From a virus (taxonomy: Duplodnaviria; Heunggongvirae; Uroviricota; Caudoviricetes), in IMG/VR virus record IMGVR_UViG_2526164632_000031: 18,314 nucleotides of DNA, one strand, 5' to 3'. The first letter of the stretch is position 1. Each line of letters opens with the position of its first letter. The notes under the pieces are model-generated. The model made no database searches. It was not told where the DNA came from and was given only the letters and a program-made list of their open reading frames with translations. Of the stretch, positions 2,533 to 17,895 are shown in pieces. The position numbers and the translations under genes were made by a program.

Positions 2533-2688
2533 TTACTTCTCAGATTCGTAGTCCACGAAGACAGCAACCTCCGTCTGGCCGGTTCGGATTCGTACCTCGC
2601 AGAGGTCTTTCCTCGTTACCAGTGCCGTCACTATGACGGTTAAACAGATGACGATAAGGGCGATTAACATCGCCTTTTGCTGCTTCAT
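2533..2688 (-). CDS. hokD: Hok/Gef family type I toxin (HokD/RelF-like)
   Basis: Translation MKQQKAMLIALIVICLTVIVTALVTRKDLCEVRIRTGQTEVAVF... is a canonical Hok membrane peptide; the ORF track extends it in frame to 2745, but the conserved Hok start is the ATG at 2688. Confidence 0.85.
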   Translation of the reverse strand: MKQQKAMLIALIVICLTVIVTALVTRKDLCEVRIRTGQTEVAVFVDYESEK

Positions 2689-2900
2689 AGCCTGCTTCTC
2701 CTTGCCTTTCGGCACGTAAGAGGCTAACCTACATTTGTGAGACATAGATTGGGCCTCAGATTAATGTTAAGCGTCTTGTAGGACGCGTAATGTTAACTGG
2801 GGCTTTTCTCTATCTGCCTTTTGGTGTTCATGCCTGAGGCAGATAGCCTCAAGCACCCGCAGCAATTCTAACTATCCAATAGATCAATGCCAACTTCTTT
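2689..2900 (-). promoter_or_regulatory. Structured hok mRNA leader region (possible mok/sok-type control region)
   Basis: Several stable inverted repeats (2771-2787 GCGTC..GACGC; 2810-2846 CTATCTGCC..GGCAGATAG; 2834-2850) immediately 5' of hok on the minus strand. Confidence 0.35.
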
Positions 2901-3245: not shown

Positions 3246-4343
3246 ATGACAATTTCATATATTCCTATTCTGAAAGCGAAACGTTCTGAGTTATCAGCTT
3301 TATCGCAGCTATCCATTGAAAAGAAATCAAAAATTTTGCCATTACTCGAAATTGAACCAGTGCCAATTGACCCTGATTCAGGTATTGCCTTAAAGAGTTA
3401 TAACGAGACTCTTATAGAGTTCGGAAAGAAAGTCTCAAAATCTTGCTCAGATATGCAAGGTGTTTATATTGATGGATTATTAATTGAAGAGCATTTTATT
3501 TCTCCTGAAGATCATTACCCTATAATAAATGCGGTTAATCAAGTTAGAGATATGGGGATAAGAGTTATTCCTGTCAGTTCACCAACTCGCCCATCTAACT
3601 ATAAAGGAGCGATTGATGAATTAATGCAGAATGAAATATGCTTGAGATTAACCACGTTAGATCTGGTTAACCCACAATTAATAACGCATTACATTAATCA
3701 TCTGGGAATTCCTTTATCAAATATTGATATAATTATTGACTTAAGAGATGAGTTAACCGAGGATAAACTTAATTCCGGCGAACTATATACTTTGGCAATG
3801 GGATTGATAAACAATCTGGCGCACCTCAATGAATACAGAAAAGTGATTCTTTCTGGGGGTTCATTTCCTACAGATCTCAGTGATATTTCTGTTGGTCTAT
3901 ATTCTCAACCTCGAATCGAGTGGATTTTATGGCAGAGTTTAATGAATAGAAAAGAACTTGCCAGAAATGTGATTTATAGTGATTATGGAGTACAGCACCC
4001 CGACTTTAATAGGCTTTCGACGCGATTCCCTAGCGTATCTGCCAGCGTCAGATACTCTGGAGATAATGACTTTTGGGTATTTCGAGGAAGAGTAGCTAAT
4101 CGCTTTGGTTATGAACAATATGGTAAACATAGTGAGGATATTCTTGCTCATCGAGAATATTCAGGGCCTACATTCTGTGCGGGAGATAGAGACATAGAAT
4201 ATTATGCAAACGAGTATCAAGCCTACAAAGCCAATCCCTCTGGTAACTATAAATTTGGTAGCCCAGAGGTATGGCGTAGGATTGGGCAAAACCATCACAT
4301 AACTAAGGTTGTTGAGCAACTCGCCACTCTTTACGGGCTTTAA
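3246..4343 (+). CDS. Uncharacterized cargo protein with Beta-protein / sce7725-like N-terminus
   Basis: 365-aa ORF, AAGG RBS 8 nt upstream, AT-rich codon usage; N-terminus MTISYIPILKAKRSELSAL resembles the Y-[IV]-P-[IV]-L-K-x-K-x-x-E start I associate with the Beta_protein (PF14350) / sce7725 family. Confidence 0.8.
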   Translation: MTISYIPILKAKRSELSALSQLSIEKKSKILPLLEIEPVPIDPDSGIALKSYNETLIEFGKKVSKSCSDMQGVYIDGLLIEEHFISPEDHYPIINAVNQVRDMGIRVIPVSSPTRPSNYKGAIDELMQNEICLRLTTLDLVNPQLITHYINHLGIPLSNIDIIIDLRDELTEDKLNSGELYTLAMGLINNLAHLNEYRKVILSGGSFPTDLSDISVGLYSQPRIEWILWQSLMNRKELARNVIYSDYGVQHPDFNRLSTRFPSVSASVRYSGDNDFWVFRGRVANRFGYEQYGKHSEDILAHREYSGPTFCAGDRDIEYYANEYQAYKANPSGNYKFGSPEVWRRIGQNHHITKVVEQLATLYGL

Positions 4344-9074: not shown

Positions 9075-9170
9075 TGAAAACCTCCGATGACAATTTTAAA
9101 CACACCTTGTGTTATATGGTCAAGCTGTTTTGTGTTTTATATAAATCACGATTCGTGATACAAGGATGCA
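9075..9170. promoter_or_regulatory. Divergent promoter/operator region of the immunity switch
   Basis: 96-bp intergenic region between divergent HTH genes; perfect dyad ATCACGA-T-TCGTGAT at 9145-9159 and direct repeats TTGTGTT(T)TATAT at 9107-9117 and 9129-9142. Confidence 0.6.
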
Positions 9171-9590
9171 ATGGAAAAAGAAAACGAAAAAATTGCCGCT
9201 AGTAGGCTCAATGACAAAATTGCAATGCGTCTTAAAGAGCGCAGGCAGAAGCTTGGTTTATCTCAAGGAAAACTTGCTGAAATCTGCGGATGGACGCAAT
9301 CGCGTATAGGTAACTATGAGGCGGGCAGCAGAAATGTTGGAGTGCATGACGCTGTCGTATTGGGAAAGGCACTTGGCATATCTCCTCCTGAGCTCCTATT
9401 TGGAGAACAGGAATCTTCTGAATTGTGGTTAAATGAATCCCAACGAAAACTTCTTGAGTTGTTTAACCAGCTACCGGGCTCAGAACAACAACGAATGATT
9501 GAGCTATTTGAAGTCCGGCTAAAAGAAATCGATGAGTATGTAGAAAAATATTTGAGAGGCAGGCTTAAAGATAATCCCCCACCGGAGTAA
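9171..9590 (+). CDS. CI-like prophage repressor (XRE-family HTH; RacR position)
   Basis: 139 aa; HTH LGLSQGKLAEICGWTQSRIGNYE; AAGGA RBS; followed by an intrinsic terminator. Confidence 0.8.
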   Translation: MEKENEKIAASRLNDKIAMRLKERRQKLGLSQGKLAEICGWTQSRIGNYEAGSRNVGVHDAVVLGKALGISPPELLFGEQESSELWLNESQRKLLELFNQLPGSEQQRMIELFEVRLKEIDEYVEKYLRGRLKDNPPPE

Positions 9591-9620
9591 TGATCTTGCT
9601 ATCACAGTAATATGCCAATC

Positions 9621-9645
9621 AGCCCGCTATCAGCGGGCTTTTTTG
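9621..9645 (+). terminator. Rho-independent terminator after the repressor gene
   Basis: AGCCCGCT-ATC-AGCGGGCT hairpin followed by TTTTTTG. Confidence 0.75.
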
Positions 9646-9686
9646 TACCATCATCATATGACACTCACTACAAAACACATATCGTG

Positions 9687-9715
9687 TTGACATAAGAAAA
9701 CGCATTGTGTTTAAT
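9687..9715 (+). promoter_or_regulatory. Candidate sigma-70 promoter
   Basis: TTGACA (9687-9692), 17-bp spacer, TTTAAT (9710-9715). Confidence 0.4.
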
Positions 9716-9888
9716 AAGCATATCCAAACAACGCCCCACCAGAGAACGGCAGGACAATACCTCGAGTTATCCAGCCACTGAACAGGGCTAAGTAGCCAGC
9801 CTGAGGCATACGAACATGACGGCAGTTGTTGATTGATACAAAGCGCAGTAGATAAAACGTTCCGCCACCCGGCGTTAAGGGGAAAAAG

Positions 9889-10107
9889 ATGGTTGGTGAA
9901 GATCTGGTTGTTATTAACGGTCAATTGTGCAGCAAAGATGTGGCAGCCATGCTTATTAGCAAGGTTCTTCCAACTGTGCTGGATGTCATTGCAGAAAAAG
10001 TAAAGGCTGGTCGTCCAGACAAGGAAGTTGAAGAGGCGGCAAAAACAGTTGTTCATGCCGCTACAGAAGCAATTATTTTGAAGAGCCTAGTTTCGCCCAA
10101 GCCTTAA
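9889..10107 (+). CDS. Small hypothetical protein
   Basis: 72-aa ORF with GGGG..ATG RBS context; non-repetitive composition; no recognisable family. Confidence 0.4.
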   Translation: MVGEDLVVINGQLCSKDVAAMLISKVLPTVLDVIAEKVKAGRPDKEVEEAAKTVVHAATEAIILKSLVSPKP

Positions 10108-10267
10108 GTGAATCGGCGCTTTTTTTAGCATCACGTTCATTGAGTAGTGACAAAAACTCATTCTCAGCATTCTCGATTTCCGAGAAAAATTCTTGATGAG
10201 TTGTTTCTCGCTGCGATCTGATGCTGAAAGCTAAAGCAAGTAGCCAGGCTTTGTCTTTATTATCCAT
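10073..10267 (-). CDS. Small hypothetical protein (convergent with the 72-aa ORF)
   Basis: 64-aa ORF, helical-looking charged sequence, AAGG upstream; overlaps the 3' end of the plus-strand ORF by 35 bp. Confidence 0.35.
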   Translation of the reverse strand: MDNKDKAWLLALAFSIRSQRETTHQEFFSEIENAENEFLSLLNERDAKKSADSLKAWAKLGSSK

Positions 10268-10662
10268 CGGAATACCTTATTACTGGTTGTGTGAGAACTC
10301 CAGTATACCACCGAGCCTGAAGTGGTAAAAAGACAGGCGCACAACACGAAGGCGCATTTCCGGTATTCATAAAGAGTCGGTCTTGTCTGTTAAATTTAAA
10401 TGGTGGGAGTGCGCCTCCGGTTGTAAATAACGACATTGCTATGTGTAGTCTTTGGCGGCATCAGTTCTACTCCGTGGCTGCCCTGTCGCCCCTTTTTAAA
10501 GTGAATTTTGTGATGCGGTGAATGCGGCTAAGCGCACGCGGCACAGTTAAAAGCATCAGTGTTATGGGTGGATTATCCGGCGTTAATTGTTAACTGGTTA
10601 ACGTCACCTGGAGGCACCAGGCACCGCATCGACAAAATTCATTTGTAAAAATGGAGATAATT

Positions 10663-10884
10663 ATGATTGCTCATCACTTCGGAACTGATGAAATACCACG
10701 TCAGTGTGTGACCCCTGGCGATTATGTTCTTCATGAAGGTCGGACATATATCGCCTCGGCAAACAATATTAAAAAGCGAAAACTTTATATTCGTAGCCTG
10801 ACTACAAAAACATGCATTTCTGACTGCATGATTAAAGTCTTCCTCGGTCGTGATGGTTTACCTGTAAAGGCGGAGTCATGGTAA
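10663..10884 (+). CDS. kilR: KilR-like cell-division inhibitor
   Basis: 73 aa from the ATG at 10663 (GGAG RBS 6 nt upstream); size and position (upstream of ydaE-racC-recE) match Rac kilR. Confidence 0.65.
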
Positions 10885-15775: not shown

Positions 15776-15970
15776 ATGCGGTATGAAAAAGTCAAACCAT
15801 GTCCGTTTTGTGGTTGTCCATCAGTAACGGTGAAAGCCATTTCAGGATATTACCGCGCAAAGTGTAACGGATGCGAATCCCGAACCGGCTATAGTGGAAG
15901 TGAAAAAGAAGCACTCGAAAGATGGAATAAACGAACTACTGGAAATAATAATGGAGGTGTTCATGTATAA
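15776..15970 (+). CDS. ralR: Lar-family restriction alleviation protein (RalR-like)
   Basis: 64 aa from ATG 15776; MRYEKVKPCPFCGCPSVTVKAISGYYRAKCNGCESRTGY zinc-finger typical of Lar/RalR. Confidence 0.8.
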   Translation: MRYEKVKPCPFCGCPSVTVKAISGYYRAKCNGCESRTGYSGSEKEALERWNKRTTGNNNGGVHV

Positions 15971-16151
15971 AATTACTGCCACTATTGAAAAGGAAGGTGG
16001 CACTCCTACTAACTGGACAAGATATTCAAAATCTAAATTAACGAAATCAGAATGCGAAAAAATGCTCTCAGGGAAAAAAGAAGCAGGCGTTTCCAGAGAG
16101 CAGAAAGTAAAGCTGATAAATTTTAATTGCGAGAAACTTCTGTCCTCGTGA
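15963..16151 (+). CDS. YdaC-like small protein
   Basis: 62 aa from ATG 15963 (GGAGGTG RBS); position between ralR and xis as in Rac. Confidence 0.5.
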   Translation: MYKITATIEKEGGTPTNWTRYSKSKLTKSECEKMLSGKKEAGVSREQKVKLINFNCEKLLSS

Positions 16152-17581: not shown

Positions 17582-17895
17582 TTTTAACGTAAATGGATTG
17601 TTAAATGTATTTTGGTTGTGATATAACCAAAAAAGACCGGAATACAGAAATTCGAGTAAATTTCGGGGAATTTCGGGGAGACGTTTACAACTGATTGATT
17701 TTAAATACAATTAAAAAAGACCGAATACGATTCCTGTATTCGGTCCAGGGAAATGGCTCTTGGGAGAGAGCCGTGCGCTAAAAGTTGGCATTAATGCAGG
17801 CTTAGTTGCCTTGCCCTTTAAGAATAGATGACGACGCCAGGTTTTCCAGTTTGCGTGCAAAATGGTCAATAAAAAGCGTGGTGGTCATCAGCTGA
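17582..17895. other. Prophage/host junction region containing the int-proximal attachment site (core not identified)
   Basis: Non-coding; direct repeats AAAAAAGACCG(G)AATAC at 17629-17645 and 17713-17728; tandem AATTTCGGGG x2 at 17659-17678. Confidence 0.4.
17713..17745 (-). terminator. Hairpin plus T-tract (minus-strand orientation)
   Basis: GACCGAATAC-GATTCCT-GTATTCGGTC (10-bp stem) preceded on the plus strand by AAAAAA, i.e. followed by TTTTTT on the minus strand. Confidence 0.4.

Follow-up and report, generated by a model that had tools for sequence, protein, structure and literature searches.

What lies between the terminator of a repressor gene and the killer gene kilR is the question raised by a stretch of 18,314 nucleotides (nt), hereafter the window, of the virus record IMGVR_UViG_2526164632_000031 (Caudoviricetes). 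A first-pass annotation had described this 1016-nt interval as a variable slot with a promoter, two convergent small open reading frames (ORFs) and approximately 380 nt of non-coding DNA, and had suggested that the small ORFs or a non-coding RNA could form an accessory element. The analysis presented here makes it probable that the early-left operon of a Rac-like lambdoid prophage begins with this interval, which would be composed of a control module, a cargo slot and a killer-control module. Upstream of kilR it carries a 95-nt small RNA (sRNA) which, as judged by homology, is an Hfq-type member of the known DicF/KilS family. Homology, Rfam membership, the layout of operators and promoter, the variability of the slot, the coding constraint on the ORFs and the covariation of the kilR leader were all computed, and the coordinates of the features are collected in Table 1.

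The Rfam model of DicF (RF00039) matches the window over its full length at 10440-10491 with 55.3 bits (E value 4e-11), above its gathering score of 48. A three-way alignment with the two prophages of Escherichia coli K-12 that carry relatives of this sRNA, Rac (KilS) and Qin (DicF), divides the region into three parts. The first, 10290-10450, corresponds to the spacer that separates sieB from kilR in Rac, and takes in the whole 5′ part of KilS together with what lies upstream of the mapped 5′ end of KilS; the second is a hairpin (10454-10490) of the Qin DicF type; and the third, downstream of the hairpin, is common to Rac and Qin. Like KilS, the sRNA lies in the 5′ untranslated region (UTR) of kilR and has the same 5′ region, 10340-10450 aligning almost unchanged to Rac, with nt 1-64 of the sRNA approximately 95% identical to KilS in K-12 genomes and no difference in what precedes the mapped 5′ end. 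The order of the surrounding elements (repressor, early-left promoter pL, ORFs, sRNA, kilR) is in turn that of dicA, ydfABC, dicF and dicB. In the hairpin, 10454-10460 pairs with 10484-10490 and is followed by a U run at 10493-10497, forming a terminator-like site, and a DicF-like processed form would by homology start at approximately 10440. The terminator hairpin of KilS (…CUUGAAGUUCGGCUGAUGUCCGCC) was not found, the hairpin here being DicF-type, and neither was the DicF seed for xylR and pykA, UUUCUGGUGAC, in whose place stands the KilS-type UAUGUGUAGUC. KilS has been detected by northern blot and by Hfq RIL-seq (RNA interaction by ligation and sequencing) and is probably transcribed from a start site of its own (Bar et al., 2021, PMC8175672). 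DicF is cut from an operon transcript by ribonuclease (RNase) E, ends at a terminator or at an RNase III site, and binds Hfq, its 3′ part acting on ftsZ and its 5′ part on xylR and pykA (PMC5069750). Among the RefSeq genomes listed none has an annotation under the sRNA, and the reference record of K-12 MG1655 annotates kilS. Of the earlier suggestion of a non-coding RNA as an accessory element, the RNA itself is borne out as a prediction by the DicF model, but it belongs to a known family and is not a new accessory element.

Pairing with ftsZ was tested segment by segment, as unconstrained folding of the full-length molecules gave meaningless long duplexes. The 3′ part of the sRNA pairs with the translation-initiation region of ftsZ at -32.7 kcal/mol, compared with -27.9 for K-12 DicF and -25.0 for KilS, by a simple duplex calculation that takes no account of accessibility. 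None of 300 shuffles did as well, and the pairing includes 9 contiguous pairs, which join CCUGUCGCC of the sRNA, at 10482-10490, with GGCGACAGG. Pairing of the seed with the initiation regions of the two local ORFs (orf72 and orf64) and of kilR was no better than that of shuffled seeds. We infer transcription, processing, Hfq dependence, repression of ftsZ and the timing of orf64 expression. The sRNA would arise either at the start site that KilS has of its own or by cutting of the pL transcript, and would end at the intrinsic terminator; its DicF-type 3′ part would pair with ftsZ's ribosome-binding site and reduce FtsZ synthesis, and its KilS-type 5′ part would provide a different seed, resembling that of the sRNA RprA. 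This resemblance lies at 10425-10453, a single-stranded stretch in the 5′ half of the sRNA that is identical to nt 51-79 of RprA at 27 of 30 positions, and a Salmonella prophage copy (locus L148, ~3545-3617) has the core of the same stretch (20/20) on a different hairpin. The RprA model of Rfam (RF00034) gives 30.1 bits (E value 0.34), below its gathering score of 70. Processed RprA has an active 47-nt form, its last 47 nt, which is headed by a single-stranded stretch (PMC9262595). No report of a resemblance between KilS and RprA was found in the searchable literature, a scope that does not include subscription papers.

Further members of the family were retrieved with an invariant 23-mer located just after the terminator, which gave at least 120 IMG/VR stretches and 17 in GTDB genomes, that is, at least 137 further loci, and with the loci already in the set at least 141 copies were analyzed. 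Among them at least three types of seed and at least four types of hairpin occur in combination with two killer genes, dicB and kilR. Every hairpin variant folds as a GC stem followed by a U run, in which constancy is limited to the outer GGCGG/CCGCC stem and the U run, inner stems and loops being replaced wholesale. The combination of KilS seed and DicF hairpin is a minority, with at least six classified copies, at least four of them followed by kilR (the window and the O55:H7 locus, L001, counted). Of 5426 complete E. coli genomes, 86 have the hybrid at full length, whereas the 5′ part of KilS is present in 1493. In some copies the killer gene is preceded by an inserted Rha/isrK/C4 module. 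In O157:H7 strain 2571 (L144, 2817-3630) and several IMG/VR loci, L005, L033 and L063 among them, an isrK-like RNA, a C4-like antisense RNA and a Rha-family gene lie between the sRNA and leader and kilR; the long 'MLNVAIEN...' ORF called in this insert runs over the RNA genes, and therefore its start is probably mis-set. The near-identical sRNA copy of strain 2571 passes the DicF threshold and is therefore among the DicF copies of enterohemorrhagic E. coli (EHEC) counted in Rfam-based work (PMC5331693, PMC7873438), the link to these named copies resting on this strain. Hence the EHEC DicF copies are probably not equivalent: the O157:H7-type copy keeps the ftsZ part, slightly better by duplex calculation, and its metabolic seed is swapped for the KilS/RprA-like one.

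How far such an RNA acts in trans is the point at which the survey can be read in different ways. The wide variation of the inner hairpin speaks for the terminator being all that counts in many copies, and the sRNA is dispensable for the module, since a Klebsiella michiganensis relative (L147, ~3380-3450), from which the DicF/KilS sRNA is cleanly absent, keeps orf72 and orf64 together with the stretch of the antisense promoter, and has the structured leader in front of a Lambda_Kil gene. Both observations would suit an element that acts only in cis, as an intrinsic terminator or attenuator that together with the leader keeps the toxic kilR off, the released RNA being a by-product without targets in trans, and it has been reported that termination factors hold kilR down (PMC5793797). 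We nevertheless regard this as rather unlikely, given that Hfq binding and mapped partners are on record for both RNA relatives in K-12 (PMC5069750, PMC8175672), that E. coli and Salmonella copies with differing hairpins have a conserved single-stranded seed in common, and that the complementarity to ftsZ is kept, slightly better than that of DicF. The preferred reading remains that of an Hfq-type DicF/KilS sRNA. A more elaborate version, to be entertained only tentatively and in our view improbable, is that the sRNA is a modular chimera in which an RprA-like seed, tapping or competing with the envelope-stress regulon of RprA, is joined to a DicF-type anti-ftsZ hairpin, and that prophages shuffle seeds, hairpins and killer genes as cassettes around a fixed leader.

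That leader follows the sRNA, and comparison of 23 distinct sequences predicts for it a fold of 34 pairs, with 98.7% of the cells at these pairs paired. A long-range helix (10511-10520 with 10622-10631) closes a multi-helix domain with hairpins at 10524-10528/10534-10539, 10579-10589/10595-10605 and 10607-10611/10617-10621, the domain being predicted to surround a hypervariable center. Eleven pairs are changed on both sides, against 2.0 +/- 1.1 after shuffling (0 of 500 reach 11), most of these double changes coming from a few divergent sequences (Klebsiella, Salmonella and Rac-type), and when the partners are slid by 1-3 columns at most two double-changed pairs are left. The analysis of structure conservation across related prophages, which the first-pass annotation had proposed as a check, has in this way yielded a covariation-supported leader at 10511-10631. 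The Rfam model STnc100 (RF02076) scores 44.5 bits here, below its gathering score of 47, and 31.9-46.2 bits at related loci; STnc100 and its relative PasD have been described as prophage markers (10.64898/2026.05.13.724894, PMC5331693). An RNase III-generated 3′ end of DicF has been reported (PMC5069750), and if 72 nt are counted from where K-12 dicF is annotated to begin, this end would coincide with the 5′ foot of the closing helix.

The promoter-like site of orf64, the 95-nt sRNA and the structured leader all lie in the 380-nt stretch between orf64 and kilR, which by alignment is a conserved right flank homologous to the sieB-kilR intergenic region of Rac and the dicF-dicB intergenic region of Qin. 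The earlier description of 10268-10650 as non-coding and fairly rich in guanine and cytosine (GC) is correct: GC content is 0.485-0.49 over 10300-10600 against 0.40-0.44 nearby, and the sole ORF inside, of 58 amino acids (aa) on the minus strand (10260-10436), has no family match in Pfam and PHROGs profile searches. Transcripts reading past the sRNA terminator would run through the structured leader into kilR, which would be kept low by termination upstream. Because read-through transcripts continue into kilR, an RNA inhibitor of FtsZ synthesis and a protein inhibitor of FtsZ would be delivered as one unit. In K-12, kilR is silenced via NusG/Rho (PMC5793797), and the untranslated segment of sRNA and leader is the obvious place to look for such control, as a candidate site. 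With the RNA and protein inhibitors of FtsZ traveling together with a conserved leader, the locus offers a concrete place in which NusG/Rho control can be sought.

At the other end of the interval lies the promoter that the first-pass annotation had identified as a sigma-70-like site and counted with the accessory element. The site exists and is unique, TTGACA-N17-TTTAAT matching once in the window against 0.01 expected from shuffles, although a simple promoter scan missed it because its -10 hexamer has no A at position 2, and K-12 Rac has TTGACA-17-TATAGT at the equivalent place of the alignment. Its assignment to the cargo does not hold. One operator-like palindrome overlaps the -35 hexamer and the other the spacer and -10 region (Table 1), and the exact 15-bp AACAC-N5-GTGTT occurs only twice in 18.3 kb, at 9674-9688 and at 9099-9113, the latter between the repressor and the divergent cro-like gene, with a two-mismatch palindrome at 9145-9159. 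The promoter accordingly stands beside the repressor gene and has operators in common with the pR/pRM region, as at pL/OL of lambdoid phages, and we read it as such because of these operator copies, the alignment to Rac and a leader common with Rac. It appears to be a repressor-controlled early-left promoter and not a cargo promoter. As for its control, we infer that pL would be off in the lysogen, the adjacent helix-turn-helix (HTH) repressor acting through the AACAC-N5-GTGTT operators. No N-like ORF follows pL.

The early-left leader downstream of pL is 97-99% identical among prophages with differing cargo and can be aligned with Rac and Salmonella. Its last 24 nt form an invariant box, GTTCCGCCACCCGGCGTTAAGGGG, which is kept in Qin (before ydfA), Escherichia sp. 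E4385, Klebsiella and Salmonella, and which stands directly 5′ of the first early-left ORF, whether this is orf72, ydaG or ydfA. It could represent a joint at which recombination takes place, a constant cassette for translation initiation, or an element that acts as RNA. A minus-strand terminator-like hairpin with a weak U tract is also seen inside this conserved leader (9732-9756), and it could stop antisense transcripts of the orf64 or sieB type short of the promoter and the repressor gene.

The framing of the interval between the repressor terminator and kilR agrees with the RefSeq gene order at an O55:H7 locus that is 99.8% identical and belongs to a Rac-like prophage: divergent ydaT and an HTH gene, the HTH repressor, two hypothetical proteins (orf72 and orf64) and kilR, followed by ydaE, recE, recT, ralR, xis and int. 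At least 80% of the interval is carried in the chromosomes of 27 of the 5426 complete E. coli genomes, the top matches (99.8% identity) being in O55:H7, O111:H2 and others, and some part of it is matched in 4624. The equivalent interval of K-12 Rac holds, as had been said, ydaG, ydaF and sieB, and in addition the annotated sRNA gene kilS (b4833). No sieB-sized ORF is present in the ORF list of the interval studied here, and the two small ORFs were found exactly as described (9889-10107 on the plus strand, 72 aa; 10073-10267 on the minus strand, 64 aa; overlap 35 nt).

The notion of a variable slot stands in that cargo is exchanged between conserved flanks, but the slot is shorter than proposed, running from approximately 9886 to approximately 10280, and the 380-nt stretch belongs to the conserved flank. 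IMG/VR contigs with a 99-100% identical repressor keep the left flank (9588-9885) at 97-99% identity and the right flank (~10280/10316-10665) at 85-95%, and between these flanks contig L077 has a ydaF-like gene alone, L094 has ydaF, a 67-aa ORF and an antisense gene of the YmfI family, and L116 has the orf72/orf64 pair. Contig L050, with a repressor 64% identical, keeps the right flank and the leader part 9719-9893 and has ydaG-ydaF-sieB in the slot, as in K-12 Rac, while O157:H7 strain 2571 has another gene set, one member of which, an antisense ORF of 59 aa, is a weak relative of orf64 (E value 4e-4). At least four cargo variants are therefore seen between the same flanks, the presence/absence pattern between near-identical prophages that is expected of a moron. 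That the slot is a decayed remnant of ydaG-ydaF-sieB, for which position alone would speak, can practically be dismissed: blastn finds nothing, and tblastn of SieB, YdaF, YdaG, YdfA, YdfB and YdfC against the slot gives noise only (best E values 0.14-0.5 in a 1-kb search space), which refutes decay at the sensitivity used, and orf72 and orf64 have intact homologs elsewhere. The alignment named beforehand as a means of refuting an accessory element has been run, and it does not reveal a decayed sieB.

The two ORFs are convergent with a tail-to-tail overlap. Homologs of orf72, of 71-72 aa and 66-97% identity, occur in Escherichia, Salmonella, Klebsiella and Raoultella. For orf64 there are fewer database homologs, but at each of the loci examined, those of Escherichia sp. 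E4385, K. michiganensis, S. enterica and the Klebsiella phage ST405-OXA48phi1.2, it adjoins orf72, with lengths and the 35-nt overlap unchanged. Between the window and Klebsiella, substitutions at the three codon positions number 15/10/37 in orf72 and 25/18/36 in orf64. The ratio of nonsynonymous to synonymous substitution rates (dN/dS) is ~0.18-0.45 for orf72 and 0.14-0.57 for orf64. AlphaFold models show a beta-hairpin and two helices for orf72 (predicted local distance difference test score, pLDDT, 79.8) and a helical hairpin, predicted to be soluble, for orf64 (pLDDT 74.8). Because the frames are fixed across three genera, third positions change in excess and dN/dS is below 1, orf72 and orf64 appear by these measures to be real and linked small-protein genes. 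Searches of Pfam, NCBIfam and PADLOC returned nothing for either ORF and PHROGs only families without known function; fold searches of the PDB (orf72 only) and BFVD (both) gave no match at E <= 0.001, the hits being generic helical hairpins. YdfC, which like orf72 has 72 aa, was considered as a counterpart and rejected, the two having no similarity.

A promoter-like site with an extended -10 element precedes orf64, and its TG and TATACT/TATGCT are kept in E4385, Klebsiella and Salmonella. It sits in a nearly invariant stretch of 60 nt (~10275-10335), which is also kept in L094 before the different, YmfI-family antisense gene. The same stretch is almost invariant from E. coli to Klebsiella, the flanking ORFs dropping to 42-70% amino-acid identity, and contains the hairpin ACCAC-N10-GTGGT; its conservation exceeds what a promoter alone explains. 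As for a terminator of its own, which a moron would also be expected to have, orf64 has only the weak minus-strand hairpin at 9756-9732, and between the convergent ORFs there are weak structures only (-6.5 to -7 kcal/mol). In the arrangement proposed here orf72 would be read from pL and so be made on induction, as the first induction-expressed gene, and orf64 would be read from its own extended -10 promoter on the opposite strand, in the place of sieB, and is probably expressed in the lysogen.

The two genes may have a part in exclusion or act as a moron. The more specific claim that orf64, alone or with orf72, is a functional replacement of sieB, namely a lysogen-expressed superinfection-exclusion or defense moron, draws on its position and orientation, its own conserved extended -10 promoter and the swapping of cargo between otherwise identical prophages; we hold it to be a minority possibility, since orf64 resembles neither SieB nor any family of PADLOC, Pfam or NCBIfam, should by prediction be a soluble, helical protein where SieB is membrane-bound, and has no clear terminator after it, and since the constant company of orf72 suggests a paired function and not a lone exclusion gene. 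That the two ORFs are not genes at all, but a device for convergent-transcription or antisense control at the RNA level, or a spacer, seems quite improbable. The 35-nt overlap is indeed the most conserved part of the pair, and both ORFs are very short and have no known domains, but in three genera neither frame is interrupted and their lengths remain precisely 72 and 64 codons, substitutions are most numerous at third codon positions with dN/dS below 1, and the models fold with moderate confidence. As a pair of genes conserved in three genera, orf72 and orf64 are a candidate for lysogen-expressed functions, and the slot, with its common antisense promoter, is a clean place in which such functions can be tested.

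Several points weigh against the overall reading of the interval as an early-left operon start with a DicF/KilS sRNA, in addition to the simple form of the ftsZ energy calculation, the few divergent sequences behind the double changes of the leader, the widely varying inner hairpin and the Klebsiella relative that does without the sRNA. The region that pairs with ftsZ lies largely within the terminator hairpin, as it does in DicF; judged by consensus, the KilS-type promoter is weak; pL departs from the usual -10 hexamer, as noted above; and library and fold searches give orf72 and orf64 no functional assignment. On the whole the interval is an ordinary though neatly modular prophage piece, its sRNA and structured kilR leader being of known kinds. 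Only the shuffling of seeds and hairpins and the RprA-like seed are mildly novel. Elsewhere in the window, Rfam matches were also obtained for the RalA antitoxin RNA (15969-16147, minus strand), the sok antitoxin RNA (2683-2858, minus strand) and, at the far end, SraC/RyeA with SdsR/RyeB (17709-17852).

Table 1. Features of the interval and its borders, in window coordinates.
Feature	Position	Strand	Basis or remark
HTH repressor, 139 aa	9171-9590		directly before the terminator
Intrinsic terminator of the repressor gene	9621-9646	+	stem 9621-9639, then T run; 8 pairs, 6 GC (terminator scan)
Two operator-like palindromes, AACAC-N5-GTGTT	9674-9688 (exact), 9697-9711 (one mismatch)	.	palindrome search, 18.3 kb
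Predicted early-left (pL-like) sigma-70 promoter, TTGACA-17-TTTAAT	9687-9715	+	motif unique in window; aligns with Rac promoter
Early-left operon leader, ~170 nt	9716-9888	+	conserved while cargo differs
Invariant box GTTCCGCCACCCGGCGTTAAGGGG	9861-9884	+	last 24 nt of leader; ribosome-binding site for whichever ORF is first
orf72, 72 aa, first early-left gene in this cargo variant	9889-10107	+	phrog_23495, E 3.6e-50
orf64, 64 aa, antisense cargo gene	10073-10267	-	phrog_22868, E 5.3e-47
Promoter-like site for orf64, TTTACC-16-TGgTATACT, extended -10	10302-10329	-	promoter scan
Predicted DicF/KilS-family sRNA, 95 nt	10403-10497	+	ends set by homology to K-12 KilS
Structured kilR leader, STnc100-like	10511-10631	+	RNAalifold, 23 distinct sequences, 34 pairs
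kilR (FtsZ inhibitor)	10663-10884	+	PRK11354, 160.9 bits (NCBIfam); phrog_294 Kil; RefSeq start from near-identical locus

Set beside the systems already known, the locus resembles several without coinciding with any of them. In layout it is like DicF of the Qin dicBF operon (b1574), which likewise belongs to an early-left operon, after a DicA-like repressor and small ORFs and before a division-inhibitor gene, and with which it shares the type of 3′ hairpin, the U tail, the ftsZ-complementary stretch and the downstream leader; it differs in its KilS-type 5′ seed, in having kilR and not dicB as the killer gene, and in upstream ORFs that are unrelated to ydfABC. With KilS (b4833) it has in common the locus, the kilR 5′ UTR, and nearly all of the first 64 nt, and it departs from KilS in the DicF-type terminator hairpin. 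Processed RprA has the same single-stranded AUUGCU(G/A)UGUGUAGUCUUUG directly 5′ of its terminator hairpin, but the sRNA described here has neither the 5′ hairpin nor the rpoS-pairing core of RprA, and is prophage-borne where RprA belongs to the core genome. STnc100 is a prophage-associated structured RNA with many copies in EHEC. The segment 10481-10670 aligns to it from one end to the other and has both its closing helix and its CCUGG-AGGCA-CCAGG hairpin, although it falls below the gathering score and is here a kilR 5′ UTR and not a free-standing sRNA gene. Finally, in Rac, lambda and P22 sieB is a lysogen-expressed exclusion gene that lies antisense to, or within, the early-left operon. 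In that slot orf64 takes the same position and orientation, with a partly conserved promoter region on that side, but it has no sequence relationship to SieB, is much smaller, has no predicted membrane attachment and has orf72 as its constant partner.

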